A stretch of DNA of 64,000 bases from a virus: the IMG/VR virus record IMGVR_UViG_650716025_000004. One strand, 5' to 3'. The notes under the pieces were generated by a model. The model saw nothing but the letters and a program-made list of their open reading frames with translations. It had not been told where the DNA came from and ran no database searches. A program made the position numbers and the translations under genes. Positions 17,658 to 49,040 of the stretch are shown one piece after another. Every line of letters starts with the position of its first letter. Positions within the stretch are counted from its first letter, which is position 1.

Positions 17658-17921
17658 TTACATTTCTTTCAAATCATCTGTGTTGTCAATCATAAAATCT
17701 TCTAAATATGTATCATCATCATAAATTAAATGTTCAGTTGCATCCATTCTTTCTTCTTTAGTAAAGTGATATGCCTGATTTTCTCGTACCTTCTTTTTGT
17801 AATCAAATAAATTAATTACCTTACTCATAATTATCACCCCATTGTTTGTGACTATTTTTTTCCATTTATAATTAACAGATATATTTTTCTTATTAGAACT
17901 TGTCCATTTCTCTATCTTCAT
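17658..17921 (-). CDS. Putative antitoxin with MKIEKWTS leader (cassette 1); second start at 17828
   Basis: SD aaggggtg at 17921, second SD ggggtg+ATG at 17828, acidic C-terminus. Confidence 0.65.
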   Translation of the reverse strand: MKIEKWTSSNKKNISVNYKWKKIVTNNGVIIMSKVINLFDYKKKVRENQAYHFTKEERMDATEHLIYDDDTYLEDFMIDNTDDLKEM

Positions 17922-18125
17922 TTTAACACCCCTTATACCCTATTTCAATTAAAATATGTTATATTAACCTACATTTTACATATAATTATTTTAGTCAATA
18001 TATATACATTAACTAATTTAAAATAAACACACTTATATTTTACCATATTTTGTAATTAGGAGATAAGGGTAATTTACACTTTTAGCTAACAAAAATAACT
18101 ACTTATTTAAAAGTAGTTATTTTAA
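17890..18125 (-). repeat. Shared TA-cassette head module, copy at cassette 1 (most divergent)
   Basis: Retains SD+MKIEKWTS, atattttacca and the terminator repeat. Confidence 0.65.
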
Positions 18126-18190
18126 AATTCTTATATTTATAATATCTATAACTCTAATGGGTTTTTATCATATATGATAACTTAAATATT

Positions 18191-19162
18191 TTATTCTTTG
18201 GGTGTTAACTGTACACTATTTAATCCTTTTATATCCATTATATCATTATCATCTAAATCTATAATAACTTCTTTGACTCCATTATCTCCTAAGATTTCAT
18301 TTACCTTTGTACTTCCGTCAGAACCATGTACCATGAAGTTCCCGCTTCCCTTTGATATACTAGCTTGGTATCTTCCTTTTGTTATATCAGTACCAACTAT
18401 CCAGTATCCAGAATATATATTTGTATTTTGATATGGTATCAAGCTTGATTTTATAGGTGTAAAATTAGCACTCATTCCTTTAAGTTCTATTTTAGAACCT
18501 TCTGGTAATATAGCCTTATACTTTTTTATTTCATAGCCACCAATCTCATTTACTAAAACACTACCATCAGAACCATATACTATGAGATTTCCACTTCCAT
18601 TAAATGTTACATTATAGCTTCCCTTAGCTATATGCTTGCCAACTATATGACTTCCTGCACTTAGCTTTTTACTATTTTCTTTAACGAACTGATCCCATTT
18701 TTTATTTTCTTCAATTTTTTCTGTTTCAGCTCTCTTTTTGTCTTCTAATTCCCACTCCTTAACTTGTATATCTCTTTCCTTGCATAATCGTTCAAAATCA
18801 GATTTTATTGATTGTTTATCTGAACCACCTATATTTTTGTATTTATCTTCTATTTCTGAAAATTTAGTTCTTTGATTTACATCAAAATCTTTATAATGTT
18901 TCTTTAATAATTCTCTATCTTCCATAGTTAAAGTATTCTTGTTTTCTTTTTTTGATTCTGTAGTAATTGTGTTATCTTGATTAGGTGTAGATGACCCAGT
19001 TGGAAGAGCTATCGATATAATTGCTAATATAATAGATCCTATTAGCATCTTTTTATTTTTACTATTATTATCCTTCTTAATAATTCCTTTAATAATTTGA
19101 AATAATGAAAATAAGAACAAACCACATGCTATTATAAATAATATAAGCGTAAAAGTAAGCAT
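18191..19162 (-). CDS. Membrane-anchored protein with duplicated GxxxVGxDIxxGxY domain
   Basis: Two N-terminal TM helices; SAGSHIVGKHIAKGSY and YSGYWIVGTDITKGRY repeats. Confidence 0.7.
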   Translation of the reverse strand: MLTFTLILFIIACGLFLFSLFQIIKGIIKKDNNSKNKKMLIGSIILAIISIALPTGSSTPNQDNTITTESKKENKNTLTMEDRELLKKHYKDFDVNQRTKFSEIEDKYKNIGGSDKQSIKSDFERLCKERDIQVKEWELEDKKRAETEKIEENKKWDQFVKENSKKLSAGSHIVGKHIAKGSYNVTFNGSGNLIVYGSDGSVLVNEIGGYEIKKYKAILPEGSKIELKGMSANFTPIKSSLIPYQNTNIYSGYWIVGTDITKGRYQASISKGSGNFMVHGSDGSTKVNEILGDNGVKEVIIDLDDNDIMDIKGLNSVQLTPKE

Positions 19163-19241
19163 ATTTTTTCCTCCTTAAAATTTTGTCGTAGTTATATATT
19201 ATAATAAGTATAAGTATTAATAAAAAAAATTCCTGAAGATT

Positions 19242-19574
19242 CTAGTTTACAAATTCCGTATTTTTAACTTTCCATTTTTCTAAAGCTATTCCCAACCAAA
19301 AACTATAAATTCCACAAGTAATAATAGTTAATAGAAGCCATTTAATCCAATTTCCAAATAACCCAACAGCTGTTCCCCTAAATATTAACCTCTTACCATT
19401 AATTACTGTATGATTAGTTTTCCATCCAAATACCATACATAATGCCCATGGGTAACATATTCCTACTGTACATACTGTTATTATAAATCCTAATAAAGTC
19501 CATCCTATAAGTTGAAATAATCCACCATCAAAATATGATGCTTCTATTTGTTTATTTGTGTTTAATTCGCTCAT
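19242..19574 (-). CDS. DUF898-like small membrane protein
   Basis: SYFDGG...TVGICYPWA...FxGT..GLFG...IT.GIY.FW pattern. Confidence 0.65.
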   Translation of the reverse strand: MSELNTNKQIEASYFDGGLFQLIGWTLLGFIITVCTVGICYPWALCMVFGWKTNHTVINGKRLIFRGTAVGLFGNWIKWLLLTIITCGIYSFWLGIALEKWKVKNTEFVN

Positions 19575-19821
19575 ATTTTCACCTCCTTACATGGGATATT
19601 GTAACATAATAATACATAATTGTGTATTTTATTCAATATTTAGAATTATTATACTAGTGCAATATATTATAAACTAAACAATTACTGAAAACTAAATTGA
19701 TTCTTATTATTATCATTTATAATCAGCCAAATGAACTCTAGTTGGTTAATTATTTAATTATAGATAACAAAAAGAACTACCTCATTCTAAAGTAGTTCTT
19801 TACATATATTCATATTTAATT

Positions 19822-19938
19822 TTACTCTTCGGTATCTTTAGTATATGTACTTTCACTTCTAGTTCTTTTCCCATATCTATATTCACCATAACAAACCCCC
19901 TCTACCTTATCTCCAACCCTTGCTATTGCTTTACCCAT
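19822..19938 (-). pseudogene. Chimeric remnant: PAAR-gene 5' copy fused to toxin 3' end
   Basis: MGKAIARVGDKVEGVCYGEY (copy of 16879 start) + ESTYTKDTEE (copy of the 49049 ORF end and its terminator). Confidence 0.75.
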
Positions 19939-20054
19939 AATTAATCTCACCTCTTTTATAAAATTCTATTTTTAAACAAATAAAAAACTCTTATAACAAT
20001 TGTTAATTTATAATAATTTAAAATAAAAAAAGAAACTTCTCTAATAAAGTTTCT

Positions 20055-20684
20055 TTAATTAGTAATTTTCTTACTATTTTCATTATAACTTAGTTCAATT
20101 CTATAATTTTCTTTAACATTTATAAAAACCCACTCTGTAATAAAGTCTTCATTATTAAGCAGCTCATCACCAGAATAATTATATAATATGAAATTACTTA
20201 ACACAATATCATAACTATTCTCACCAATTTTCTCAAATCGTCTTAATTTACCTAAATATATTAGTTGTTCTGTACTTAAAAATACTTTAATCCACATACC
20301 AGACTCAAAATCTACAATCTCTGACATTATATCAGTTTTTAAAGATCTACTAATTTTTATTTTTTTAAGAGCCTTACTACTTAATTCACTTTGAATAAAA
20401 ATAGAACATATGTATGATATTACTATAGAAAAAATAAGTGTCAAAATAATGCTTTTGGGAGATGAAACATCTATAACTTTTTTAAATAAGCTTGATATTA
20501 AATATTCAAAATTTATTATTATATAACTAATAACTATACATTTTAATATTAAATTTTTATCTTCTTCCTTTTTTTTATTTACTATAAAATCTTTTATACT
20601 TATAAAAACATAACCTGGTAATATATAAATAATTAATATTGGCAGTATACTAATAAAGTCCTTAATTTTTAAAAAATCAACCAT
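20055..20684 (-). CDS. DUF6338-like membrane protein
   Basis: ILPGYV N-terminal TM helices, soluble C-terminal domain; TAATG coupling to the upstream gene. Confidence 0.55.
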   Translation of the reverse strand: MVDFLKIKDFISILPILIIYILPGYVFISIKDFIVNKKKEEDKNLILKCIVISYIIINFEYLISSLFKKVIDVSSPKSIILTLIFSIVISYICSIFIQSELSSKALKKIKISRSLKTDIMSEIVDFESGMWIKVFLSTEQLIYLGKLRRFEKIGENSYDIVLSNFILYNYSGDELLNNEDFITEWVFINVKENYRIELSYNENSKKITN

Positions 20685-21007
20685 TACTTTTGTCTCGGTG
20701 GTTTCCTAGGAGCAGATGTCAATGTAGGAGGTACACTTTGGCTACCTCTTTCATTAAAATAATCACGATTACTATTATGGGAAATTTCAATATTCCTATC
20801 ATCGCCATTTTGTTTTATATTTGATTTATCATGCAACATTTTTATCACCTCTTCATTATTTATTTTCGACGTATTTTCCTTTTTTCCTCCTAAAACTGAT
20901 TTTTTATTTTGGGAAACTATACATATAATAAAAATAATTATAAAAAAAGTCATCCATGGATGTTGCAAACACCATTCTTTCATATTTAACCTCCAACATT
21001 TATTCAA
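20684..21007 (-). CDS. Small single-TM protein
   Basis: One hydrophobic helix; start may be the later MKEWC. Confidence 0.5.
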   Translation of the reverse strand: MNKCWRLNMKEWCLQHPWMTFFIIIFIICIVSQNKKSVLGGKKENTSKINNEEVIKMLHDKSNIKQNGDDRNIEISHNSNRDYFNERGSQSVPPTLTSAPRKPPRQK

Positions 21008-21212
21008 TATTAATAGGATATACTCATAAGTAATAAAACATTCTTATTCAACCAATTAATCACAAAACTCTTCTATTATTTTAATTTTTTATATTTGAAT
21101 ATAATGATAATATATTTTGATATTAGTCTTTTTTATTCCTGATTACGTGTAATCACTAATCATATTTGTATACATAACAAAAATAACTACTTAATCAAAA
21201 GTAGTTATTTTT

Positions 21213-21695
21213 TTAAGCATGATTAATATTATTGTTTTCCTTCTGATTATCATGAACACATTTATCTATAAATTCAAGATAAAGTTTTCGATCTTCTTTT
21301 GGAAATAGACTATTAACTATTATCCTTACAATACCTACTATCTCTGCAAATATACCTGTTATAAATAATCTTATTGTCCATTCATCATATTTGAATGTTC
21401 CTTTCCCAATATTCCAAACTATTAATATTGTTGAAGCAACTAGCGCTATTAATATAACTGATAAAATTATACTTAAAGTTATTTTTAGTCTTGAATTTGT
21501 TTTTTGTTCATTTGGAAACGAACTTGCTATAAAATTTAATAACATGTCTACACCATTGGATTTTACTCTGTCTGCTTGTCCAATTACATTTAAGCTTCTA
21601 CGATTGCTATTGTTAATGTTTAGTTGGTCAAATAGATTATCATTTTCTTCGATTTCCTTAATATCTATGGTTTCCAAATCTTTTATTCTAGTCAT
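21213..21695 (-). CDS. Two-TM membrane protein coupled to the IrrE peptidase gene
   Basis: Two hydrophobic segments; ATGA overlap with the peptidase stop. Confidence 0.7.
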   Translation of the reverse strand: MTRIKDLETIDIKEIEENDNLFDQLNINNSNRRSLNVIGQADRVKSNGVDMLLNFIASSFPNEQKTNSRLKITLSIILSVILIALVASTILIVWNIGKGTFKYDEWTIRLFITGIFAEIVGIVRIIVNSLFPKEDRKLYLEFIDKCVHDNQKENNNINHA

Positions 21696-22213
21696 GATTT
21701 AATTAACTCCAAGTTTTTTAATCTAGTATACATTGCAGGTTTTGAAACGTTAAAAATATTAGCTAATATAGATATTTTTGTATCTTCAGTCATTCCTATA
21801 GAAGTTGCCTTTTTATATCTATTTCTAATTTCCTTTTCATCCATCAAAATGCATCCAGCAAACTCATCTGCTTCCTTTTCTTCTTTTGCTAAATTATGAT
21901 TATCATCTCTAAATAATAAATCTACCATCTTAGGATTTTTGTTTAAATGCTCTAGAAAATAATGTCCCAATTCATGTGCTATAGTAAATTTCTTTCGTTC
22001 ATTAGTATCTTGAGCATTTACATATATATCTATATCACCATCATTATGACTTATAGCTCCAGAAACTTTTTCTCCATTTGCATTTAAATTATCCACCTCG
22101 TATACATTTATGCTTAATTCATTTGCTATGTCTATAGGATTTACAGAAGGACCTATTATAGCATACCTTTCTTTAATTTCATTAACTATCTTGTGTACTT
22201 TAATCTTATCCAT
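21692..22213 (-). CDS. ImmA/IrrE-family Zn metallopeptidase
   Basis: RKKFTIAHELGHYFLEH (HExxH), EKEADEFAGCILM; start at 22213 with SD gaaggag (track start 22342 lacks an SD). Confidence 0.85.
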   Translation of the reverse strand: MDKIKVHKIVNEIKERYAIIGPSVNPIDIANELSINVYEVDNLNANGEKVSGAISHNDGDIDIYVNAQDTNERKKFTIAHELGHYFLEHLNKNPKMVDLLFRDDNHNLAKEEKEADEFAGCILMDEKEIRNRYKKATSIGMTEDTKISILANIFNVSKPAMYTRLKNLELIKS

Positions 22214-22479
22214 ATTAATTTCTCCTTCATTAATAGCTTGTTTAAAAGATAAATTTCCCCAAATATACAGCCTTCTAAAAGAAGTTACTTGTATAATAAC
22301 ATGGTATTTTTTTATAATTAAGGAAAAATAACTACATACCAAAACTTATTTTTCATATATCTATTACCTTCTACTAGTTATCTTATTTTCCTTCTTTTTT
22401 TTCAAAATTTGTGGATAACTTTTTATAAATTAACAATTTTTTCTTTAATCTGATGATTATAAAATTACTTTTATAAATA

Positions 22480-23220
22480 CTACATCATAGACCAATTATT
22501 TATAAATCTAAATCCATCGTTATAATGTGAAGGATTTAAGTCCTTGTATGTACTAACCTCAAATTCTTTACAAAAGTTTAGCCATAAATTTTTAAAATAC
22601 ACTCTTGATTCTTTTTTGTACTTTGATGAATGAGCACCGCCTAGCATTGTTCCAATTCTATCTTTTGCACAATGTAATAATTTTTGTGCTTGTCTACTAT
22701 TAATAGTCGAACTATCTATTAAAGTATTTAATTGAGTTTTGGTATCTATTAATTCTTTAGTATTTTGTTGAATTTGTCCTTTTAATTCTACTATTTCCCC
22801 TGTTAATCCCATCTCATTAAAGAATTCTTGTTTTTGTTTTTCTGTACCCATAAAAGCTTCATGCAAAACCTTAGCACATTTCAGTTGATAGTTTATTAAT
22901 TTTTTTACTGTTTGTGGATTTTCTTTTTGCATTTTAGGAGTTAAAGTAATTTTTGCTAACCATAGAGTTACAAAGTCCTCATTAACAAATAAAACGGTTT
23001 GTTCTCCTCCGTTAGTAAGGTGTCGCAAATATGTGATACCTTGTTTTAATACTAGATCTTTTTTTTAGTTTTCAACTTGTCTTCTACCTTGCCCTTCTGT
23101 TAATCCAATAGATTGTATAGTCTTTTTAACTCCTAAAAATATCTTGCCATCTTCGGTTCTGACCCCTAAAAGCTTATCTCCTTCAAAGTCAATTAATTTT
23201 GTATCTAAATTCTTATTCAT
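22480..23220 (-). pseudogene. Phage antirepressor (AntA-like N-terminus, ORF6C-like C-terminus) with an in-frame stop at codon 52
   Basis: SD aggaggg + MNKNLDTKLIDFEGDKLLGV...; TAA at 23067-23065, same frame resumes KKDLVLKQG...LWLAKI...YQLKCAKVLHEAF. Confidence 0.75.
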
Positions 23221-23269
23221 ATTTACCCTCCTAAAGTTTTTGTATTAATTTATATATTTTAATTATTTA

Positions 23270-23572
23270 TTAAACTAATTCCCACTTACCAACCTCTAAA
23301 TAATCTTCAATATCCCAACCTTCATACCAAACTAGATACTTTTTAAACTTAACTATTCCCTCTTTAACTCTTAATGTATTAGTATTAAATGTATCATCAA
23401 ATACTTCACTATTATTAAGATGATAGACACTTGCTACTTCATATCCTAAAATCTCATCTTTACATTCTTCTATTACTTCTAAGCTATCTGTATATGTAAT
23501 AATATTATGTAATTTCCCTTTCTTATCCTTATACTTCCCCTGAATTATTAGATAAATTGTGTTGATTTCCAT
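23270..23572 (-). CDS. Hypothetical protein, paralogue of 47380-47682
   Basis: Near-identical 100-aa copy elsewhere in the window; SD aggagg. Confidence 0.75.
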   Translation of the reverse strand: MEINTIYLIIQGKYKDKKGKLHNIITYTDSLEVIEECKDEILGYEVASVYHLNNSEVFDDTFNTNTLRVKEGIVKFKKYLVWYEGWDIEDYLEVGKWELV

Positions 23573-23771
23573 AATTAAAACCTCCTATTTATTTTTGGAT
23601 TTGTTGGTTTCATTTACCTTATAAATATAATTATATACGTTTTTCGTATAAAGTCAATACTATTTTTATATATTTTATACTATTTTCGTATAAGTTTATC
23701 CATAAGTTGAATACTATATACTAACGTAGTATAATTATAGATATAGTATTTATAAGGAGGGTTAACTATAT

Positions 23772-23981
23772 ATGATTAAAATGAAACTTCATATAAAATT
23801 AGCTGAAAATAGACTTACTCAATCTGAGCTATCTAAAATTACAGGCATAAGACAGCCTACAATTTCTGCATATTGTAATGATTCTTTTGTTTCTATTAAA
23901 AAAGACCATCTTAACATTCTATGCAAATTCTTTAATTGTAAAATAAATGACTTAATAGAATATGAAGACAATCTTAAATAA
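23772..23981 (+). CDS. XRE/Cro-type HTH regulator
   Basis: LTQSELSKITGIRQPTISAY...LCKFFNCKINDLIEY. Confidence 0.85.
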   Translation: MIKMKLHIKLAENRLTQSELSKITGIRQPTISAYCNDSFVSIKKDHLNILCKFFNCKINDLIEYEDNLK

Positions 23982-24082
23982 ATCCTTTAGTCTACTGCCT
24001 ATTTTTACGCATAACAAAAAGAACTACCTTACTATGAAATAGTTCTTTATATATATTCATATTTAATTATTAATCTGACACT

Positions 24083-24102
24083 CCCAAGACTAAAGTCTTG
24101 GG
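24083..24102. mobile_element. IS200/IS605-like subterminal hairpin remnant
   Basis: cccaagac-taaa-gtcttggg; no transposase nearby. Confidence 0.4.
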
Positions 24103-24319
24103 TTCTTAGATACATTAACTTCTTTTATACTCTCATTTATTTAAACTACAAATAAATTACAACATATAAATACTAGTTATTTTCTCTAAGACTTTCACTA
24201 ACTATCACTCTAATAAATGATTAACATTAGTATAAGGCTCATGTCTAAACCTATATAGATTTTATATCCCATACTAGATATTAATGATATTGCTTTGTAT
24301 ACGTCAACACCTAAATGAG

Positions 24320-24916
24320 TTAGCTTTCTTTTGCGATTGGTTGTAAATAATTATCTTTTAATATATTAACTAAATCATTGTCTATTATGTCAAATATTAA
24401 TGATAATAATTCTTCATTTTTAGATATTCCTTTTATCATTTTTACTTTTTCCTTAATATTAATATCAATATACTCTAATATATTGTTGATTTCTTGTTTC
24501 ATTTCTTTATTATGTTCATCGTTAAAATATTTTTGTAATTCATAAGTCAAAGCAATTTTATAATCCAGTTTTTTTTCGTCTTGTTCATCAATATGAGCGT
24601 TTATTTTCTTTGAATTTATCTCTATGGCATCTATTTTATTTCCATCAACTGAAATAATCATATCTAAATTTACATATGAATCATGCTTTAAAAATGAAGA
24701 ATATTTGCTCACTTCTAATTTTAAGTAATTTTCAGGTATTTTGTTTGACTTCTTTAAATTTTCTAATGATGTTATAGGTGCTATTAATAAAGTTCTATAT
24801 GGAGTTTCTCTTGAGTGAAGTACAACCGCCATATGTTCTCCAAACAATACCTTGGTTTTATTTTTAGTTTTTGTGGGAAAGCTATAGTAAACTATTTGTC
24901 CTTTTTTAAATCTCAT
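24320..24916 (-). CDS. PemK/MazF-like toxin (cassette 2)
   Basis: KKGQIVYYSFP...GEHMAVVL...LLIAPITS...SYVNLDMIISVD. Confidence 0.8.
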   Translation of the reverse strand: MRFKKGQIVYYSFPTKTKNKTKVLFGEHMAVVLHSRETPYRTLLIAPITSLENLKKSNKIPENYLKLEVSKYSSFLKHDSYVNLDMIISVDGNKIDAIEINSKKINAHIDEQDEKKLDYKIALTYELQKYFNDEHNKEMKQEINNILEYIDINIKEKVKMIKGISKNEELLSLIFDIIDNDLVNILKDNYLQPIAKES

Positions 24917-24941
24917 TATATGTGTCCTTTCTATAAAAGTT

Positions 24942-25247
24942 TTATTTTTGATTTTTACATCTTTTAAGATATTCTTTCAATGTTGCATTATTGATTTGTT
25001 CTACTACATTTTCAAAAAACATTCTTCCTTCTTCATATTCCTCATTAGTAAGCATAGGTTCTTTTATTTTTGCTTGAAGAAATGAATCTGAACGTTTATT
25101 CTTCTCTCTTATCATCATTAATGCATTCATATGTAACCCTCCTAATGAACATTTGTCATTGGAATCACCATTATAGGTATATTTCAATTTATTTTTTATT
25201 CTATAAACTTTCCCTTTAGTATAACCTGTCCAACGCTGTATCTTCAT
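24942..25247 (-). CDS. Putative antitoxin with MKIQRWTG leader (cassette 2); second start at 25130
   Basis: SD aaggggtg+ATG at 25247; SD aggaggg+ATG at 25130. Confidence 0.65.
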   Translation of the reverse strand: MKIQRWTGYTKGKVYRIKNKLKYTYNGDSNDKCSLGGLHMNALMMIREKNKRSDSFLQAKIKEPMLTNEEYEEGRMFFENVVEQINNATLKEYLKRCKNQK

Positions 25248-25460
25248 ATTAACACCCCTTGCCCAACTTTTCAATAAGATTTTGGTAAAATATATGATAT
25301 TGTGTTATATTTTCCTATTTAAATACAACTTACTAAGATTCTAGATCACATTTGTAAATTATTTACATATTTACATATTACCATAAATTGATTGGAGGTC
25401 ATAATGTTATTTTTACGTATAACAAAAATAACTACTTAATTAAAAGTAGTTATTTCCTTT
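25225..25460 (-). repeat. Shared TA-cassette head module, copy at cassette 2
   Basis: Terminator, atggtaa(a)at, tgtaaattatttaca, SD and MKIQRWT; alignable by eye to the other copies. Confidence 0.85.
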
Positions 25461-25499
25461 GTATATTATTAATAAGATTAATTACAATATTATAGTAGT

Positions 25500-25772
25500 T
25501 TAATTTTTATTATCGATTTTATCAATTATTAGTGCGACTGAGCCTATAATAACAAATATAAGTGCAAGTATAAAATAACAATTCGCATAATTAGAATTTA
25601 TAATATAATTATACGCATCTCCTCCAACATAAGCATTCACTGAATCTCTTGAATAGCTACTCGTATTATTGTTATAACAAAACATCTTATAAAAACCAGT
25701 TCCTAAAAAAAGTATACATATAAAATATGATATATATGCTATTATTTTCTCTTTACTTTGTTTATTGTCCAT
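25500..25772 (-). CDS. Small two-TM membrane protein
   Basis: Two TM helices around NAYVGGDAYNYIIN. Confidence 0.7.
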   Translation of the reverse strand: MDNKQSKEKIIAYISYFICILFLGTGFYKMFCYNNNTSSYSRDSVNAYVGGDAYNYIINSNYANCYFILALIFVIIGSVALIIDKIDNKN

Positions 25773-25775
25773 AAC

Positions 25776-26351
25776 CTAATTTCCACCACCTTCTCTAAAA
25801 ACACTTATTATCTTCTCATCTAAATCTTTTAATATTGTTGATGGATAATTACATTTCTTTTCATCTGTAACATTAGATATTTCATCAATTTGTTTTTGCA
25901 TGCTTTCCAATATCTCTTTGAATTCATTACTGTATTTATCCTTTATATCCACTTCCGTTTCAATGTCACATCCGCTTTTTATCATATTAGCTTGATGTAA
26001 AAGAACATCCCTATTAAATTTACTAATTTTATAGCTATATTGAATTGTTTTCACTTCTAAATTCATTAATGAATCAATTAATTTCTTTTCTTCGTCATTT
26101 AAATCCTTATACTTTTTATTAATATCTGTATAAAAATTAGAAATTTTATTATTATCATAATCACTCATAATATTTGATAGTTCAAGTGTAGTATTATAAT
26201 TACAAGTTTTTAATTCAGGATTTAATGTACTTATGTATTTGCATAAATAATTATAGTTTTCTGCACTTTGTTCGTATACTTCTTTTCTTATATTTCCTTT
26301 ACCACACCCTATAAGTATACAAACCAATATCATAAAAACTATAGTAAGCAA
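25776..26351 (-). CDS. Putative lipoprotein
   Basis: Lipobox-like ILIG-C after a hydrophobic signal. Confidence 0.6.
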   Translation of the reverse strand: MLTIVFMILVCILIGCGKGNIRKEVYEQSAENYNYLCKYISTLNPELKTCNYNTTLELSNIMSDYDNNKISNFYTDINKKYKDLNDEEKKLIDSLMNLEVKTIQYSYKISKFNRDVLLHQANMIKSGCDIETEVDIKDKYSNEFKEILESMQKQIDEISNVTDEKKCNYPSTILKDLDEKIISVFREGGGN

Positions 26352-26640
26352 TATATTTTTTTCTTCAAAATTTTATCACCTTTCTGTAATGTAACTCCAT
26401 ATGTTGCAATTAATCTCATAAATTATTATACACTTTTGTATATATTTTTTCAATATTTGTCTGTATTTTACAACTTCAATCATATATCAATTATTTTATA
26501 ACAAATAAAAATTTTAATATAATTAATATTAGAAATCCATTAAAATATTTTTATAAAATTTTAATTGCTTTTTTATTATAATTTGTTCTTGATTACGTGT
26601 AATCACTAATCATATTTTTATACATAATAAAAATAACTAC

Positions 26641-27114
26641 TTAATCAAAAGTAGTTATATCAACATTATTTACTTTTATTTCATTTTTAATTTCTTCTAA
26701 TATTTCTAGACATGTTTTATATAAGAAAAGCTTATGAGGCTCTCTTTTAAATGCTTTAAGATATGGAAGTAATATCCCAACAGAACATGCATTACAAAAT
26801 ATAACTGTTCCCCAAAAGCTTTTAAAATTTGCTACAGCATTTATAATACCGGATGCTAAAATAGATATACTAATCATAGCTATACTCATAACTTCATTTC
26901 TTATCGTACTTTCCATATTAGATATTAATAAATTCACTCTTAATCTTTCTACATTAATATTTATTTTTTTATCTTTTATCTTTTCTATATAATCATTTTT
27001 TATTTTATCTCTTAATCCTTCATAATATTGATATTGTTTATTATTATTTATATGTTCACTAAATTCTTTATAATATATATCAAGATCATATTTTGCTGTT
27101 TTGTGATTTTTCAT
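26641..27114 (-). CDS. Two-TM hypothetical protein
   Basis: Two hydrophobic segments; SD ggtaggaggg; stop lies inside the terminator repeat. Confidence 0.6.
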   Translation of the reverse strand: MKNHKTAKYDLDIYYKEFSEHINNNKQYQYYEGLRDKIKNDYIEKIKDKKININVERLRVNLLISNMESTIRNEVMSIAMISISILASGIINAVANFKSFWGTVIFCNACSVGILLPYLKAFKREPHKLFLYKTCLEILEEIKNEIKVNNVDITTFD

Positions 27115-27221
27115 ATGAATCCCTCCTACCTTTTTATCGATAAGAGATTTTCATTCTTTAACCATCTATAACACAACATATTTATAAAAAAATAAGCTAA
27201 AACAATATTAGCCTATCTCTT

Positions 27222-27620
27222 TTATAAATTGTCAATTATTATCTTAAACTCTACATCTAATTTTTCTATAAACTCCATAAGCAAATTAAATGCTTCTGGC
27301 TTAATTTGACCAATTACCATATAGTCAAGTTTATCTTTATTAAAATAATATAATTGTTCTGCTTTTATATACCCATCCTTACCATTGTCAGGATCAGTAA
27401 CTGTGTCATTGTGTGTTATAGGAAAATTTCCTGCGTATTGTAATTTCTTTTCTTGTTGCTTTTTATTTTTAAAAGATGACATTACATTACAAATAATATT
27501 ATAATCTAAACCCTGTATTTTACCCGATTCATCACTTAAAACAACAAAAGAATGTTGATCTAACTTTTTTTCGTTATCCACATAATTTTTTATTAATATA
27601 ATATCCCCAACTTTACACAT
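27222..27620 (-). CDS. PemK/MazF-like toxin (cassette 3)
   Basis: KVGDIILI...HSFVVLSD...CNVMSS...GYIKAEQLYYF. Confidence 0.65.
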   Translation of the reverse strand: MCKVGDIILIKNYVDNEKKLDQHSFVVLSDESGKIQGLDYNIICNVMSSFKNKKQQEKKLQYAGNFPITHNDTVTDPDNGKDGYIKAEQLYYFNKDKLDYMVIGQIKPEAFNLLMEFIEKLDVEFKIIIDNL

Positions 27621-27638
27621 TTGTTATCCTCACATCTT

Positions 27639-27875
27639 TTATTTATCGTTATAATCTAACAAAACCTTTTTCTTTCCTGATAAAACTTCTTCACTCCAAT
27701 TAATGGGTGCAACATCTTTTAAAGAATCTTGTGTAGAAACTATAGTAGTTTTTTTATTTTGTAAGATATTTAAATTAAATGATTTCAATTTATTCATATT
27801 AACACCCCCATTACTTTTCAACTTGTTCCGATTTATTTTTATATATTTGCAACTTGTCCAACGTTGTATTTTCAT
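27639..27875 (-). CDS. Putative antitoxin with MKIQRWTS leader (cassette 3); second start at 27797
   Basis: SD aaggag+ATG at 27875; SD gggggtg+ATG at 27797. Confidence 0.65.
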   Translation of the reverse strand: MKIQRWTSCKYIKINRNKLKSNGGVNMNKLKSFNLNILQNKKTTIVSTQDSLKDVAPINWSEEVLSGKKKVLLDYNDK

Positions 27876-28085
27876 ATTACCACTCCTTGTCCCGTTTTTC
27901 AATAAAATTTTGGTAAATTATATGATATTATGTTATATTTTTCTATTTGAATACAATTTACTAAGATTCTAGATTGCATTTGTATATTATTTACTTATTC
28001 ATATTTTACCATAAATTGGATATTGGTCACAATGTTATTTTTACGTATAATAAAAATAACTACTTAATCAAAAGTAGTCATTTTT
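27850..28085 (-). repeat. Shared TA-cassette head module, copy at cassette 3
   Basis: Near-identical to 48800-49040. Confidence 0.88.
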
Positions 28086-28087
28086 GT

Positions 28088-28897
28088 CTAACTTGTTAAA
28101 TTGGGGTAATCTAGAAAGTCTAGTAAACTTTCATTTTCTAGTTTATCATTTTCTAACTCACTAATAAACTCCATAGCATCTTTAATCTTAAACAATTTAT
28201 ATGATGATTTTCTTAAAATTTCGTATATTGTCTTAAATTTATCATCTTCTATATCTGTATCATATATAAATATAGTTTTATAATTTTTTTCTTCCATTTC
28301 AGCTGCTGTAAATGCCCAAGCTTTTACGGAAGTTATTATCTTAGATAAATTTTTATTAGCAAATGTAAATATTTTAAATGCATATTCATTAATAAAATAA
28401 TCATAATTAACCGGTTCCGAATATTCACCTTTAGTTTTACCTTTATAAAATTTAATATTATTACTTTTCATAAAATGTTTAAAATAATTTACTTGCTGAG
28501 ATGTATTTGGTCTATCTTTCTTATTATAATCATATCTTAAAAACATTTTTTTTGTTTTTTCTACGAAAGACTTCATGTTATCTGTGTTACTTGTATATAT
28601 TTTAGAAAATCTTAGTTCATTAATAAATGTATCAGTATAATTATAAATATTAAATGATTTTTCCCTTGACCAAAATGTATTCTGTATTTCACATTGCATT
28701 CCTTTTAATAATAGTTTTAGAATATCAATATTTACCTCATCATCAAAACTCTGAACTCTTTGCCATTTAGTCGTAATTTCAAAATTTCTTTCATCTGTTT
28801 TTTCATTATAAAAAAGTATAGCTACATTTATAGATTCATCCGTAATAAAAGATGGATGATAACTTAGTACAGAAAAATATATTTTCAAACTACTCAC
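28088..28897 (-). CDS. DUF3037-like partner of the HipA-like kinase
   Basis: FSVLSYHPS...ESINVAILF N-terminus typical of DUF3037; overlaps the kinase stop. Confidence 0.65.
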   Translation of the reverse strand: MSSLKIYFSVLSYHPSFITDESINVAILFYNEKTDERNFEITTKWQRVQSFDDEVNIDILKLLLKGMQCEIQNTFWSREKSFNIYNYTDTFINELRFSKIYTSNTDNMKSFVEKTKKMFLRYDYNKKDRPNTSQQVNYFKHFMKSNNIKFYKGKTKGEYSEPVNYDYFINEYAFKIFTFANKNLSKIITSVKAWAFTAAEMEEKNYKTIFIYDTDIEDDKFKTIYEILRKSSYKLFKIKDAMEFISELENDKLENESLLDFLDYPNLTS

Positions 28898-29786
28898 CTC
28901 CTGACATAACTATATTCTTAGCTATTTGTTCTATAATATTATTCATATTTTGTAATCTATATAATATATATTCCTTTAACTTTTTCAAATCATTTTTATC
29001 TGTTATCCATACTTGTGGTAAATCTTTTATTATATCTTCTAGTATATCATTATTTAATAAACTTTTGAATATTTCATATGCACTTATTAATTTTTCTTTA
29101 GTTATGATTTGTGCATCTATAAACGGTTTATATATACAATATGTTTCTGTAATTAAAATCTTGTTATCTTTATAATCTTCTTGTTGCATTAATAAATCTA
29201 ATTCTCTTTCATTCCACCTATTTTGTAGATTAAATACATGTGAATGATCTATTATGTACATTTTAGATTCATTCTTGGAGAAATTTAATAATAAATTTCC
29301 GTTGTGTCTATCCTCATTATAAATAAGATAATCAAATAATAAAATTTTATTCATATCTTCTTTATTTTTAATTGCTTTTACTAATTCAGTGTCACATATA
29401 AACTTAGTAACCTTAGATAATCTCTTACTATAAAATCCTATTCCACAAATATCATCATCATACTGTAATTGCGACTTTAACTCTTCACTTAGTTCTGTAT
29501 TTTTTGTTATATTACAAATTCCACCATCAGGAATAGGTAGTTTTAATAGCATTGCTATCTTAAGACATATATATTCATTTATAAGTATCTTATATCCCCA
29601 TCTATTTTTAAATGTTTTAATTATAACATTTTCACCATCTATTATACCTTCAACTGGTTCCGTCGCTCCATATGGTAATTTGCGTAATATCTTATTTACA
29701 TCTCGAATCATATATAATTCTCCCTTATGGAATAATTTATTACAAAAATTTATATCTAATACTCTATTAAAGTTAAATAATTTCAT
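28890..29786 (-). CDS. HipA-like (HipA_2) Ser/Thr kinase
   Basis: GATEP, LINEY, FDYLIYNEDRHNGNLL, YIIDHSHVF. Confidence 0.8.
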   Translation of the reverse strand: MKLFNFNRVLDINFCNKLFHKGELYMIRDVNKILRKLPYGATEPVEGIIDGENVIIKTFKNRWGYKILINEYICLKIAMLLKLPIPDGGICNITKNTELSEELKSQLQYDDDICGIGFYSKRLSKVTKFICDTELVKAIKNKEDMNKILLFDYLIYNEDRHNGNLLLNFSKNESKMYIIDHSHVFNLQNRWNERELDLLMQQEDYKDNKILITETYCIYKPFIDAQIITKEKLISAYEIFKSLLNNDILEDIIKDLPQVWITDKNDLKKLKEYILYRLQNMNNIIEQIAKNIVMSGGE

Positions 29787-34796: not shown

Positions 34797-34808
34797 GTTT
34801 CCACCGCC

Positions 34809-36126: not shown

Positions 36127-36135
36127 AATAGTTTA

Positions 36136-37081: not shown

Positions 37082-37083
37082 AT

Positions 37084-37350
37084 TTATTTAACCCTTCTAA
37101 TTATGATTCCCTTCATTTGCTTTTTACGTTCCTCAATAGATTCTTTTGTAATAGTAGGTTTTTTTAATGCTTCTAACATTTGTATTGCTGATTCACCCTT
37201 AATTACTGGAATTGTTGCCATTGATACTGCCATTATTCTCATCCTCCCACTCTCTTTTATATGTCTATATTGATTAATGTGATATACTCTTTTTAACTTG
37301 TTCAAATCTACTTTTATAGATTTTGAACTTATCCACTTCTTTATATTCAT
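37084..37350 (-). CDS. Putative antitoxin with MNIKKWISS leader (cassette 5); second start at 37233
   Basis: SD ggggagtgag at 37350; SD gggagg+ATG at 37233. Confidence 0.65.
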   Translation of the reverse strand: MNIKKWISSKSIKVDLNKLKRVYHINQYRHIKESGRMRIMAVSMATIPVIKGESAIQMLEALKKPTITKESIEERKKQMKGIIIRRVK

Positions 37351-37550
37351 TTTACCATCTCACTCCCCTATTTACAATATTTTAGTAAAATTTTATCCAT
37401 AATATTCTTTATATTATCCATAATTTTATAAAATTTGGTTAAAATATATTATTTACATAATTATATTTTACCATAAATTGGTTATAAGTAGTAATGATAT
37501 TATTTTATATAACAAAAACTCCTAATATGGTTGAATACTAGGAGTTTTGT
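37325..37550 (-). repeat. Shared TA-cassette head module, copy at cassette 5 (divergent)
   Basis: 37450-37550 nearly identical to 36487-36585. Confidence 0.75.
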
Positions 37551-37927
37551 TTGTCTGAAGCAATTCTTTGTTCTGTATATTGTTCTAACACATAATCGTG
37601 GAATAACTTTTCAACTGTATCTAAGTCACTGGGATGCAAATCCCCTTTCTTTCTCTCGAACATATCTATAGGTAAATACATACTTTTAGAAGCTCTAGCT
37701 GTGGATTTCATTTTCAGTTTAGCCTCTTTCCAATAAAATATTCTATAATCAAATTTATCTCTAGGTTCATGTTTAGTCACTTTAATGCTTAACACACCTA
37801 TCTCTTCATCATTTTCTTGTAGCACAATAACAGGACGTGGTTTTAATACAGGTTCATCTTCAAATGGAAATAGGGCATACCAAACCTCTCCTCTTTTCGG
37901 ATGTTTATTTTGTTTCGCTTCTGTCAT
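37538..37927 (-). CDS. PemK/MazF toxin (cassette 6)
   Basis: KRGEVWYALFPFED...KPRPVIVL...VLSIKVT; likely start MTEAK overlapping the antitoxin end. Confidence 0.85.
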   Translation of the reverse strand: MTEAKQNKHPKRGEVWYALFPFEDEPVLKPRPVIVLQENDEEIGVLSIKVTKHEPRDKFDYRIFYWKEAKLKMKSTARASKSMYLPIDMFERKKGDLHPSDLDTVEKLFHDYVLEQYTEQRIASDKQNS

Positions 37928-38132
37928 ATATATCGTCCCATTCATCTTCATCATTCCATTCATCGTCTTGAGAAATAATAGGTCTTCCCTTTGCATCTAT
38001 TTTTATATTTCGCATTAGCATTTCTTTCAATGCAAATTTATTAATTCTTAAGCAATTTTCCATTTTAGCTCCCCCATTTCTTATATAAAATGCCCTTTTA
38101 ATCTGTGAACTTGTCCACTTCTTTATTTTCAT
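37905..38132 (-). CDS. Putative antitoxin with MKIKKWTS leader (cassette 6); second start at 38063
   Basis: Acidic W-containing tail DDEWNDEDEWDD; two SD+ATG. Confidence 0.7.
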   Translation of the reverse strand: MKIKKWTSSQIKRAFYIRNGGAKMENCLRINKFALKEMLMRNIKIDAKGRPIISQDDEWNDEDEWDDIYDRSETK

Positions 38133-38340
38133 ATTACCACTCCTTATCCAACTTTTCAATGAAATTTTGGTAAAATATATGATATTATGTTATATTTTTG
38201 TATTTGTGCATCTAATAATTTTATATTTTTTATGCAAATTATTTACATGTTTATATTTTACCATATATTGGTTATAAGTAGTAATGATATTATTTCATAT
38301 AACAAAAACCCCTAATATCGTTGAATACTAGGAGTTTAAA
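38108..38340 (-). repeat. Shared TA-cassette head module, copy at cassette 6
   Basis: Same block order. Confidence 0.85.
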
Positions 38341-38683
38341 AATGTTGTTTGACAATTCTATTGATAACTTTATCAAAATCCTCATCTGTCATAACACCAA
38401 TCTTTTTATACAATTTATTAGATGGAATCTTGTACAATTTATTGACTTTTACAAATGACATTTTATCAAGCCCAGCTTCTTTCCACTTAACTATAGGTTC
38501 TTTGAACTTATCAAAGTGTCTTGGTGGGTCTTTAGGTTTTGCACTAGTTATTTCAGAAATAGTGTACGAAGTTTCTTTATCAGTTACATTTTTATTAATT
38601 ATTATGATAGGTCTGTTTTTTGCTTTCTCAATTTTATCTTCATAATAAATACGAACTATATAAATATCTTTAATATCTGCCAT
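38336..38683 (-). CDS. PemK/MazF toxin (cassette 7)
   Basis: DIYIVRIYYED...KNRPIIII...EITS...AGLDKMSFVKVNK. Confidence 0.85.
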   Translation of the reverse strand: MADIKDIYIVRIYYEDKIEKAKNRPIIIINKNVTDKETSYTISEITSAKPKDPPRHFDKFKEPIVKWKEAGLDKMSFVKVNKLYKIPSNKLYKKIGVMTDEDFDKVINRIVKQHF

Positions 38684-38693
38684 ATATTAATAC

Positions 38694-38918
38694 CTATTCT
38701 TCATCCTCATACCAATCTTTATGATTAGGATTATTAGAATCTAATTCCACCATATTGTCCTTACCTGTTAACAAGGTAAGTTTAGCACTAATTTTATCTA
38801 GTGCTGATTGGATTTCTGGAGTTTTATGAAATACTACTTCCATATTATCTGCTCCTCTCTTATGTATCTTTAACTTGTACACCTTTTTATTAAAACTTGT
38901 CCAACGTTGTATTTTCAT
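38694..38918 (-). CDS. Putative antitoxin with MKIQRWTS leader (cassette 7); second start at 38843
   Basis: Tail DWYEDEE; SD agaggag+ATG at 38843. Confidence 0.7.
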   Translation of the reverse strand: MKIQRWTSFNKKVYKLKIHKRGADNMEVVFHKTPEIQSALDKISAKLTLLTGKDNMVELDSNNPNHKDWYEDEE

Positions 38919-39070
38919 ATTAACACCCCTACCTTATTTTTCAATAAAAATTCTGGTAAAATATATGGTACTATGATATATTTTTCTACTTAAATATAAT
39001 TCACCAATATTTTAGATTGTAATTGTAAATTATTTATACAATTATATTTTACCATAAATTGGTTAGGGTT
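38895..39070 (-). repeat. Shared TA-cassette head module, copy at cassette 7 (no terminator part)
   Basis: Similarity ends after ttttaccataaattggtt. Confidence 0.8.
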
Positions 39071-39185
39071 TGTAATAATATTACATACATAAAGCAGCGT
39101 GGATACTTAACATAAAATCACAGTTTTATTTACTTATCTTTTTGTAATATTAATTTATACATAATAAAAAGATAGCTATATAAAA

Positions 39186-39278
39186 CTATCTAAACGAACT
39201 AAGTAAAATTGTTATAGATTGTACCAAGCTTATCCAAAACATAATTTTAATCGCCAAAAATTTTACTTTTTTGTACAC
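39186..39278 (-). CDS. Candidate type I toxin peptide (30 aa, not in the ORF track)
   Basis: GTG start, SD gggggaggtg, MYKKVKFLAIKIMFWISLVQSITILLSSFR; anti-SD at 39357-39366; TTGACT-17-TAGTAT promoter about 140 nt upstream. Confidence 0.55.
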   Translation of the reverse strand: MYKKVKFLAIKIMFWISLVQSITILLSSFR

Positions 39279-39486
39279 AAAAACACCTCCCCCTCTTGCA
39301 TGTTAACAATCTTTTAAATTAATAAATTTAATAAATTATTTACCTTTCCGCAAAATGGGAGGTGTTATCTTATTTACCGTAACGGTGTTATTTTATATTT
39401 GTTTAATTTACATTATATTTATATACTACAATAATTTATAATTTAAGTCAATATTTTTATATAAAATAATATAATAAATATTTACA

Positions 39487-47288: not shown

Positions 47289-47379
47289 CGTTTTAAAAAT
47301 CCTCCTTGATATTGTATTGTTGTTTTATTTATCATATCTTAATCCCCCTAATCAAGCACATTCTTAATATTTCAATCTT

Positions 47380-47682
47380 TTAAACTAATTCCCATTGACC
47401 AATTTCTAAATAATCTTCAATATCCCAACCCTCATACCAAACTAAATACTTCTTATATGTAACTATTCCTTCTTTAACTCTTAATGTACCTGTATTAAAA
47501 GTATCATCAAATATTTCACCACTATTAATATCATAGACGCTTGCTATTTCATATCCCAAAATCTCATCCTTATATTTTTCTATTATTTCTAAACTATCTG
47601 TATATGTAACTACGTTGTGTAATTTACCCTTCTTATCTTTGTATCTCCCCTCAATTATTAGATAAATTGTTTTTACTTCCAT
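47380..47682 (-). CDS. Hypothetical protein, paralogue of 23270-23572
   Basis: Near-identical 100-aa copy. Confidence 0.75.
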   Translation of the reverse strand: MEVKTIYLIIEGRYKDKKGKLHNVVTYTDSLEIIEKYKDEILGYEIASVYDINSGEIFDDTFNTGTLRVKEGIVTYKKYLVWYEGWDIEDYLEIGQWELV

Positions 47683-47871
47683 AATTAAAACCTCCTATTT
47701 ATTTTTTGGATTTGTTGGTTTCATTTACCTTATGAATATACTATATCACCCATTATATATATTGTCAAATATATATATTATATATTTTATATATTGTTTG
47801 TTATATATATTGAATATATTATATAGAGTTGGTATACTATATAATAAGAAATAGTTATATAGGAGGGTATT

Positions 47872-48066
47872 ATGAAAATTACAATAGATACTGTATTAGA
47901 AGAACAATCAAAAACTCGTTATTGGTTAGCTCAGCAAACAGGTATTACATATCCTAGTATAATGAGAATAGCAAATAATAAATCTACATCTATAACTTTT
48001 GACAACCTTCAAAAAATCTGCATAGCTCTAAATTGCACACCAAACGATATACTCCAAATTGACTAA
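47872..48066 (+). CDS. XRE/Cro-type HTH regulator
   Basis: TRYWLAQQTGITYPSIMRIANN...ICIALNCTPNDIL. Confidence 0.85.
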   Translation: MKITIDTVLEEQSKTRYWLAQQTGITYPSIMRIANNKSTSITFDNLQKICIALNCTPNDILQID

Positions 48067-48215
48067 AACTAATAACTCACCATTATATAATCAATCTATT
48101 TCTCCGCATAACAAAAAGAACTACCTTACTATGAAGTAGTTCTTTACACATATTGGTGTTTAATATTAATATGTATTGTATCTCATCAAACAATTTAAAT
48201 AATATGCATCTAATT

Positions 48216-48575
48216 TTATGAATAAAATTCGTTGATTATTTCAATAATTTCATTTTTAGATGGTATACGATTGTCGTCCTTTTTATAATAAACAGTTAAT
48301 AAAAATATTGTTTTTTCATTTTGTATTACATAATAGATGATTCTATATCCATTTGATTGCCCAACACGAGTATCTGTATTTTTAGCTCTTGCTTTAAATG
48401 CATCTTCACCATTTGGTAATTTAATATCATTTATAGTATCTCCCACTAATACCCCTTTTTCTAGTTGTTCTACTACAATATCGACATCATCATCAATATG
48501 TTTGTACTTACGTTTATTAATGTAAAATTTTAAATCACTTATAAATTTGTCTGTAGGAATAACTTCATAACACAT
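48216..48575 (-). CDS. RelE/HigB-like toxin (cassette 8)
   Basis: YEVIPTDKFISDLK...GYRIIYY...IFLLTVYYK. Confidence 0.85.
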   Translation of the reverse strand: MCYEVIPTDKFISDLKFYINKRKYKHIDDDVDIVVEQLEKGVLVGDTINDIKLPNGEDAFKARAKNTDTRVGQSNGYRIIYYVIQNEKTIFLLTVYYKKDDNRIPSKNEIIEIINEFYS

Positions 48576-48588
48576 ATCCTAACCCCTA

Positions 48589-48825
48589 TCAACCTTGTTT
48601 TTCTTTTTTTAGCTCCTCCCGTACCTCTCTCCAACTTTTTTTAGATGAATTACCCTTTCGTATTTCTTGCATTTGTTGCAAGCTTGTCCTAAGAGACTCA
48701 GCAACAGTACAGTATCTTTCAACTACTTCCATACCTAATCCCTCTTTCTCTCTATTTTCTTTATATCTAATCTTTTTTAACTTATACACTTTCTTATTGG
48801 AACTTGTCCAACGCTGTATCTTCAT
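48589..48825 (-). CDS. Putative antitoxin with MKIQRWTS leader (cassette 8); second start at 48732
   Basis: SD aaggag+ATG at 48825; SD gaggg+ATG at 48732. Confidence 0.7.
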   Translation of the reverse strand: MKIQRWTSSNKKVYKLKKIRYKENREKEGLGMEVVERYCTVAESLRTSLQQMQEIRKGNSSKKSWREVREELKKEKQG

Positions 48826-49040
48826 GTTACCACTCCTTGTCCCGTTTTTCAATAAAATTTTGGTAAATTATATGATATTATGTTATATTTTTCTATTTAA
48901 ATACAATTTACTAAGATTCTAGATTATATTTGTATATTATTTCCATATTCATATTTTACCACAAATTGGTTAAAGGTCATAATGTTATTTCTTCGCATAA
49001 CAAAAAGAACTACCTTACTATAAAGTAGTTCTTTACATAT
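48800..49040 (-). repeat. Shared TA-cassette head module, copy at cassette 8
   Basis: Near-identical to 27850-28085. Confidence 0.88.

Follow-up and report, generated by a model that had tools for sequence, protein, structure and literature searches.

A shared head region on eight predicted toxin-antitoxin cassettes of a Clostridium botulinum group III phage-plasmid

The IMG/VR virus record IMGVR_UViG_650716025_000004, analysed here as a single stretch of 64,000 nucleotides (the window), comes from an SPbeta-type, c-st-like phage-plasmid found in Clostridium botulinum group III, whose relatives are p1 of CP063960, p1 of CP063966 and phage c-st. It encodes eight predicted toxin-antitoxin (TA) operons, each preceded by a copy of the same repeated region, hereafter the head. 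We conclude, with a probability of about 0.7, that these operons are independent units ("morons") with one shared regulatory head, and that they are exchanged by homologous recombination and gene conversion. This mechanism is suggested by crossovers that are dispersed over the available identity tracts, by the mosaic structure of the heads and by the chimeric heads found at junctions.

The repeated head and its cargo

A repeat search between 17 and 50 kb revealed nested families of direct repeats of 77-233 nt each, and a nhmmer profile derived from the aligned copies identified eight full copies of a head of about 265 nt, all on the minus strand (E 3.9e-39 to 4.1e-67). The eight minus-strand copies that a preliminary description of this DNA had reported were thereby found at their claimed places. 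Named c1 to c8 by rising window coordinate, the heads lie at 17871-18124 (c1; E 3.9e-39), 25200-25466 (c2; E 4.1e-67), 27818-28091 (c3), 36318-36589 (c4), 37293-37557 (c5, a chimera), 38073-38339 (c6), 38859-39137 (c7, the first of a four-cassette array, with a degenerate terminator part) and 48771-49036 (c8; E 2.3e-66). Searching the whole assembly showed that full copies are confined to this stretch of the phage-plasmid contig (C2); outside that stretch, recurrence is limited to the first ~60 nt of the head. The cassettes had been placed between essential virion genes, which is true of the array, located between the tape-measure and distal-tail genes, and not of the remaining four cassettes, which occupy an accessory-gene-rich region among tail and baseplate genes.

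The window and ten related loci together supplied the 22 distinct copies on which the anatomy of the head was built. The order of parts proposed earlier (terminator, TGGTAAAAT, palindrome, AT-rich block, inverted TTTTACCA, Shine-Dalgarno (SD) sequence, leader) was confirmed, but two of the parts are not constant: the inverted site is missing from c1, and several copies have a degenerate palindrome. The terminator part is composed of an A-tract, a hairpin and then a run TTTTTGTTAT. A consensus scan counted 10 terminator-like sites in the array, compared with 0.6 expected, and the stem is preserved through compensatory changes at 4 of its 11 pairs (16 copies). This hairpin element is predicted to be an intrinsic terminator that ends the preceding unit. 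With a terminator-only nhmmer profile, the element was also detected nine times without the remaining head between 16.9 and 51.4 kb: one stand-alone copy closes the array (35663-35705, minus strand), and the others lie at 16921-16953, 19762-19806, 21173-21214, 24008-24052, 26623-26657, 48106-48146, 50420-50466 and 51392-51435.

Downstream of the terminator, a predicted extended -10 promoter element, P1 (TATGGTAAAAT), is invariant across all copies and precedes a 5′ untranslated region (UTR) of ~110-120 nt. Allowing at most one mismatch, the P1 13-mer TATGGTAAAATAT occurs 14 times in the window against 1.3 expected. These matches include seven P1 sites, four inverted copies within heads, and one located ~30 nt upstream of the start of the C3 ADP-ribosyltransferase gene, a position expected of a real promoter. 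In the c4 head, the 13-mer is perfect on both strands (36500-36512 on the minus strand, 36409-36421 on the plus strand). P1 is followed by the short palindrome and by an AT-rich block of ~70 nt, of which at least four unrelated versions exist; the AT-rich region as a whole measures about 100 nt and usually includes an inverted copy of the motif. The second promoter-like site, P3, reads TTGAAA, 17 nt, TG-n-TAAnAT and then G (TTGAAA-17-TGGTAATAT); the site and its upstream TG were both picked up by the consensus scan in every one of the four array heads. The P3 -10 overlaps the leader ATG, and this ATG is preceded by a G-rich SD sequence. Head c1 contains the terminator, P1 as TGGTAAAAT, TTGAAA-17-TAAAAT and the leader start around a divergent middle block.

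Every head precedes a small antitoxin open reading frame (ORF) of 74-101 aa followed by a second ORF, all on the minus strand. Among the toxins of the eight pairs, four are PemK/MazF-like, one is Doc, one is GNAT, one is weakly RelE/ParE-like and one has no family match; five of them, namely three PemK, the Fic/Doc and the GNAT toxin, score above the cut-offs of Pfam or NCBIfam. Cassette c1 (16938-17921) pairs an antitoxin at 17658-17921, whose leader starts MKIEKWTSS, with a 232-aa partner at 16938-17636 that matched nothing in Pfam, NCBIfam or PADLOC. In c2 (24320-25247), the antitoxin at 24942-25247 is followed by a 198-aa PemK/MazF-like protein at 24320-24916 (PF02452, E 3.3e-6), while c3 (27222-27875) combines an antitoxin at 27639-27875 with a 132-aa PemK/MazF-like toxin at 27222-27620, which is under the Pfam cut-off (E 0.0022) and has a c-st orthologue annotated PemK/MazF. 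Cassette c4 (35707-36375) harbors an antitoxin at 36136-36375 and a Doc/Fic toxin at 35707-36126 (Pfam Fic, E 2e-16; TIGR01550, 54.6 bits, over cut-off), and c5 (36584-37350) an antitoxin at 37084-37350 and a GNAT toxin at 36584-37081 with matches to Pfam Acetyltransf_7/_1. The other two array members encode PemK/MazF-like toxins: c6 (37538-38132) has its antitoxin at 37905-38132 and a toxin ORF at 37538-37996 (Pfam E 2.4e-5) that is called as 129 aa in relatives, and c7 (38336-38918) has its antitoxin at 38694-38918 and a 115-aa toxin at 38336-38683 (Pfam E 2.1e-9). Finally, c8 (48216-48825) contains an antitoxin at 48589-48825 and a 119-aa RelE/ParE/HigB-like toxin at 48216-48575, whose matches to Pfam (E 0.0039) and to HigB-2 in PDB profiles (E 0.014) are both weak and under cut-off. 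Comparison of the antitoxins with Pfam, NCBIfam and PDB profiles gave no domain, save a weak RelB-like match for c8 (E 0.0024). With a small upstream antitoxin linked to a toxin of known fold, the cassettes would fit type II TA operons.

Similar heads precede dissimilar cargo in c3 and c8. Their heads, described earlier as nearly identical, are 21 kb apart and share 90% identity across 233 nt, which is similarity short of near-identity; the antitoxin bodies and toxins behind them are mutually unrelated. That the two copies head different toxins is thus borne out, with the caveat that the family assigned to each (MazF and RelE) rests on the weak matches given above. Altogether, one head is common to at least 12 cargos, namely four MazF types, Doc, two GNAT types, the RelE-like toxin, a PIN toxin, the 232-aa protein, a decayed copy of the c1 cargo in CP063966 (c1′, toxin cut to 106 aa) and a cassette called X.

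Cassette turnover in related phage-plasmids

Identity to the tail protein encoded at 34809-35603 identified seven distinct neighbourhoods for comparison, in which the number of cassettes between the tape-measure and tail genes is 5, 4, 3, 2 or 0. The fullest array, in locus L006, reads MazF115 - MazF129 - X - GNAT - Doc, where X is a pair of 89-aa and 185-aa proteins. The window and loci L004, L008 and L010 have MazF115 - MazF129 - GNAT - Doc; CP063960 (locus L005) has an insertion sequence, IS701, within a head, then X - GNAT - Doc; L009 retains MazF115 - X; and CP063966 (locus L007) and c-st contain no cassettes there. The comparison revealed cassettes that were lost, gained, replaced and copied, with junctions in the module or in its terminator part; for content and breakpoints, the reading thus withstands the refuting condition set in the preliminary description. 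Reordering, also named there as something to look for, was not found, the order being collinear in all relatives. With their own predicted promoter and terminator, and their presence or absence at fixed sites in the seven relatives, the cassettes qualify as morons.

Individual junctions could be placed within the head. For the loss of X, the GNAT head of the window (c5) is chimeric: its 5′ part resembles the X head and its 3′ part the GNAT head of the five-cassette relative, with a partner switch between the hairpin loop and the P1 region. For the loss of MazF129 in L009, the switch falls within a 70-nt tract of identity that belongs to the head's 3′ half, and for the L005 junction it lies near the P3 -35. 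Two further differences have their junctions in the terminator element. A 9.9-kb block (window 18124-28047) containing c2, c3 and about ten other genes is absent from L009, with a 37-nt junction overlap, and a Panacea-domain pair (49049-50412) is precisely absent from p1 of CP063960 (locus L001), with a 69-nt overlap. Crossover positions range from the hairpin loop or 3′ stem through the 3′ half of the head and the vicinity of the P3 -35 to the leader, with no single core site.

Other comparisons likewise point to exchange. The c1 cargo has its own divergent head in the window and a c8-type head in CP063966 and L007, and a second, decayed c1 cassette is present at another CP063966 locus. Database proteins pair the c3 antitoxin body with four or more different leaders. 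When five sub-blocks were typed at 92% identity, the heads proved to be mosaic, the nearest relative changing along their length. Across five relatives, 16 of 70 long homology-block ends, which are not independent events, fall in heads or terminators, which make up 7.9% of the region.

We propose that the 60-270-nt direct-repeat blocks would allow homologous recombination and gene conversion to delete, duplicate, replace and re-head cassettes, possibly assisted by phage recombination functions, and that such recombination would yield the cassette differences among related phages. Homologous recombination between modules, one of the two exchange routes put forward initially, is the mechanism favored by the dispersed junctions and the mosaic heads. 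The junctions would explain exchange, and not the capture of new cargo. The cassettes themselves may serve maintenance of the plasmid-prophage, anti-phage defence or both.

Other changes were observed as well. The cassette-free relatives retain a 41-codon remnant of the Doc antitoxin (L007 9590-9900 compared with window 35720-39486), the Doc toxin gene being precisely gone, and their upstream cassettes were lost via a 9-nt microhomology join to a small hydrophobic-peptide gene (window ~39186-39450), which the preliminary description called type I toxin-like. In p1 of CP063960, the IS701 element (L005 5689-7051) is inserted in the head at the palindrome right after P1, with an apparent target duplication TTGTATA. 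An IS607-like/TnpB element in c-st (L003 38046-40018) lies between P3 and the leader ATG of a MazF cassette. A 2.95-kb segment flanked by PAAR-gene repeats, which contains c1 and two ORFs (323 aa and 110 aa), is absent from p1 of CP063960 and from c-st.

The antitoxin leader and competing explanations

The head extends into the coding sequence as a basic leader of ~20 aa (MKIQRWTSS..K.YKLKK) in frame with each antitoxin. All the small ORFs start M-K/N-I-Q/K-R/K-W-T-S-S, continue with a basic stretch ending in a YKLKK-like motif, and are mutually unrelated beyond ~20-26 residues. In 22 copies and 12 cargo types, the frame running from leader to body contains 0 stops in 683 codons, compared with 94 and 75 in the other two frames. 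The tryptophan is invariant, two or three bases differ in the R/K and Q/K/E replacements, which alter whole codons, and length differences are multiples of three. These features argue for translation of the leader frame.

An in-frame internal ATG, preceded by a G-rich SD sequence at 5-10 nt, is found at codon 23-39 in every cargo type. An exhaustive HMMER search identified stand-alone homologues of the c8 body, of 46-57 aa, that start at the internal methionine of c8, four or five residues ahead of a conserved RYC...ESL...SLKEM core, which makes this ATG the family-typical start. These relatives required the exhaustive search, since a word-based search with the c8 body matched only itself. The gene for a short toxin-neutralising peptide, complete with a start of its own, may have come with each cargo, and the head would add an in-frame basic extension to it. 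Because the P3 -10 overlaps the leader ATG, P3 transcripts would encode the short form alone, whereas P1 transcripts would give the long antitoxin.

The leader follows a pattern of basic strand, turn and second basic/hydrophobic segment ending in LDKLK, then NGG, which may resemble the N-termini of MazE/AbrB or ribbon-helix-helix (Arc) proteins; a search of the ESM Atlas with the leader gave no usable match. Our leading hypothesis is that the leader binds DNA, the alternative being a common degradation or processing tag. The shared basic leader and shared motifs could then provide common (auto)regulation of all cassettes in the lysogen. Comparison of the leader variants (QR or KK) with the operator-like motifs made no covariation evident, the independent heads being too few, and four public RNA runs with the same species label contained 0 array reads and hence provide no test of expression. 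A further-reaching reading, on present evidence doubtful, is that the head is a portable autoregulatory unit of operator motifs, two promoters and the basic, DNA-reading N-terminal hairpin of the repressor, and that the eight or more TAs, having motifs and leader in common, form one cross-regulated network. Any neutralising peptide gene fused in frame behind such a head would become a regulated antitoxin; P1 would supply a long DNA-binding isoform and P3 a short neutralising one, and a single signal would switch the whole network.

Antitoxins with the leader come almost exclusively from C. botulinum group III and C. haemolyticum, with one further occurrence in a Clostridium sp. prophage. In metagenomic SPbeta-like phages encoding YomU, YomN and a tape-measure protein, the tail-gene regions contain distant relatives of the c8 body with head-like leaders; one of these phages also encodes a YonO-like protein with an RNA-dependent RNA polymerase (RdRP) domain. 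The metagenomic phage L015 has a complete head; in L016, TGGTAAAAT is located at -134 and a perfect TGGTATAAT directly precedes the ATG; and in L017 to L019, two extended -10 sites stand in tandem and the basic leader is in frame. In the outgroup L011, P1, P3 and the leader are kept, and the terminator and middle block are not. This pattern indicates that the two promoters and the leader are the features conserved over distance. The RdRP domain PF05183, the family of the SPbeta YonO RNA polymerase, is encoded at L016 1-449 in a metagenomic phage that also has a head-like TA cassette, and we take the lineage of this phage to be probably SPbeta-like.

Four other explanations were weighed against exchange of shared-head units by homologous recombination. 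An integron-like system, the label used in the preliminary description, would have a dedicated site-specific recombinase excise and insert cassettes at a hairpin acting like attC. Arrays in one orientation with each cassette bounded by a conserved hairpin, three terminator-element junctions between loop and T-run, and two tyrosine recombinases ~12 kb from the nearest cassette (c1) agree with it, but those three junctions coincide with the sole identity tract available there, and other crossovers are spread over the 3′ half of the head, the vicinity of the P3 -35 and the leader. The recombinases (3737-4765 and 5101-5919) score 28 and 88.6 bits on the integrase model TIGR02249, for which the cut-off is 265, and 55.5 against 435 on PRK15417, with higher scores on the XerC, XerD and XerA models. 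They thus appear generic and Xer-like, and the dispersed crossovers give no support to the role that had been suggested for them. The GTTRRRY core of attC was not found at the cassette boundaries, where the element reads GTTATAT or GTTATGC and the hairpin is followed by TTTTTGTTAT(A/G), with no purine triplet after GTT; instead, hairpin and T-run have the canonical form of a terminator, in which compensatory changes are seen. The recombinase genes have no attI or Pc-like platform beside them, and each cassette carries its own P1 and P3 promoter-like sites. With neither an IntI-type integrase nor an attC core, the label is not supported, and we regard a site-specific system as unlikely and an integron-type mechanism as highly improbable. 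Plain paralogy would mean that a single TA operon underwent ancient duplication and replacement of its toxins, so that heads are alike by descent with no ongoing exchange. All heads do align end to end, and the same leader type in distant SPbeta-like phages implies an old architecture. Descent alone nevertheless sits poorly with heads that are block mosaics of changing nearest relative, with nearly identical cargo behind different heads or leaders, with heads 90% identical at 21 kb before unrelated antitoxin bodies and toxins, and with chimeric junction heads in relatives, and we consider it unlikely.

The other two explanations concern what the head encodes. The head might act as RNA, either as a structured 5′ leader or through a cis-antisense small RNA that starts from the inverted TGGTAAAAT and is ended by a bidirectional terminator, so that antitoxin and toxin expression would be controlled as in type I or type III-like systems. 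The 13-mer is indeed on the opposite strand in four heads, perfectly so in c4, the A-tract, hairpin and T-run could terminate both ways, and P1 is followed by the 5′ UTR described above; however, the inverted site is missing from c1 and L011, and of all parts of the head the middle block is conserved least, c1, c5 and the outgroups having a replacement for it. Rfam, scanned over 17-52 kb with E values up to 1, gave no match, and folding of six sense leaders and three antisense stretches against shuffled controls gave z values of -1.9 to +1.3. The head therefore looks like a DNA-level regulatory region and not a structured RNA, and we give the RNA explanation little weight. The leader, in turn, might not be a functional peptide, the ATG region being merely the P3 promoter or a ribosome-binding site, the frame incidental and the short antitoxin alone real. 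Such a view draws on TG-n-TAAnAT at the ATG being better conserved than the SD sequence and perfect as TGGTATAAT in L016, on gene callers that in some cases start at the internal ATG (P0019, P0020), and on the shortness of the stand-alone homologues. It leaves unexplained the stop-free leader frame, the invariant tryptophan, the basic residues kept via whole-codon changes and the in-frame length changes, as well as the in-frame basic leader of the distant L017 to L019 behind a different promoter layout, and it seems to us improbable.

Several points weigh against the preferred reading of shared-head units exchanged by homologous recombination. Some crossovers lie within identity tracts of 8-19 nt, which are short for RecA-type recombination, and several indels in the region do not involve a head. 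The empty site of L007 arose from two microhomology deletions, of 9 and 7 nt, and the c1 segment (16925-19876) is bracketed by a 111-nt direct repeat of a PAAR-gene start (16814-16924 and 19877-19987). Toxin assignments are weak for c3 and c8 and absent for c1, and the TA activity of the pairs is predicted, as are both promoters (P1 and P3), the antisense site and the two isoforms of the protein. The leader has no DNA-binding domain match in Pfam or PDB profiles, even at E 10, and an AlphaFold2 model of the c3 antitoxin, computed from a 17-row alignment, had a mean predicted local distance difference test score (pLDDT) of 53, with no strand or domain.

Neighbouring genes and comparison with known systems

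The surroundings of the cassettes are rich in other TA and defence genes, including ToxN/AbiQ, the Panacea-domain pair and a HipA_2/DUF3037 pair. The Panacea-domain antitoxin and its partner (49049-50412, minus strand; Pfam SocA_Panacea, E 1.6e-15) form a headless unit flanked by direct terminator elements. This antitoxin, with its 162-aa partner (49049-50169), adjoins a ToxN/AbiQ type III toxin (50494-51030) on the minus strand. The HipA_2-like kinase (298 aa) and DUF3037 protein (269 aa), at 28088-29786 on the minus strand, match A and B of the PADLOC candidate PDC-M66; other relatives have an Ig-like gene plus a PIN TA cassette at that site instead.

The C3 mono-ADP-ribosyltransferase ORF (51519-52253) has the promoter 13-mer at 52283-52295 on the minus strand, with one mismatch, and the terminator element 51392-51435 after the gene. 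Because it shares the 13-mer upstream and the same terminator element downstream, the C3 gene looks like a moron of the same transcriptional class as the TA cassettes. Another promoter 13-mer, at 31040-31052 on the minus strand, lies in the last codons of the tail-spike gene and is directed antisense into the plus-strand ORF 29998-31032. Two paralogous pairs located 24 kb apart, within a 300-nt repeat that is 85% identical, each consist of a Cro/C1-type helix-turn-helix gene (23772-23981 and 47872-48066, plus strand) and a divergent 100-aa ORF (23270-23572 and 47380-47682, minus strand). They adjoin c2 and c8 and may be local regulators.

If correct, our reading would provide a concrete example of a large prophage assembling and reshuffling a TA and defence arsenal inside its tail-gene operon. 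Ordinary recombination and a reusable "plug", made up of terminator, promoters and protein start, would suffice, with no dedicated cassette machinery. A leader common to MazF, Doc, GNAT, RelE-like and PIN antitoxins raises the question of co-regulation through a common N-terminal handle and operator. Cassette turnover would explain part of the strain variation in group III C. botulinum phage-plasmids and would be useful for annotation and typing, many of these antitoxins being currently annotated with inconsistent starts. No description of the head or of the array was found in full-text literature searches.

One closely related concept is that of phage morons, introduced by Hendrix and colleagues for independent promoter-gene-terminator units between late genes. 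The cassettes resemble them in their predicted promoter and terminator, their tail-gene setting and their presence or absence at the same site in relatives, but at least 12 cargos here share one homologous head reaching into the coding sequence, and the repeated heads would drive turnover. Integron gene cassettes include the TA cassettes of chromosomal super-integrons. They too form one-orientation arrays of small TA cassettes with a hairpin-forming end element and are gained or lost whole, whereas IntI, attI, Pc and the attC core are lacking here, and the cassettes have their own promoters, dispersed crossovers and single copies at several loci.

Lambdoid phages exchange modules by homologous recombination at conserved boundary or linker sequences, and short conserved intergenic sequences are likewise the places of exchange here; the boundary, however, is a unit of terminator, promoters and leader, repeated 8-17 times in one genome. 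Contact-dependent inhibition (CDI) and Rhs systems have orphan toxin/immunity arrays, in which a constant 5′ coding region similarly lets homologous recombination swap the variable cargo. The cassettes differ from these in being complete, separately expressed operons, with the constant part on the antitoxin and not on the toxin.

The nearest concept found is Panacea (SocA/DUF4065), a hyperpromiscuous antitoxin domain (PMC8832971). The shared part of Panacea antitoxins is the one that neutralises (PMC8832971). In the cassettes, too, one antitoxin part is combined with many unrelated toxins, and a Panacea pair is present in the same region; what is shared here, however, is a ~20-aa leader and the promoter region, and the bodies are unrelated. 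A moron/TA hotspot that turns over by recombination at conserved boundaries is therefore of an already known kind. What appears to be new is that one homologous head, extending into the coding sequence, is common to at least 12 TA cargos, together with its apparent two-promoter, two-start layout.

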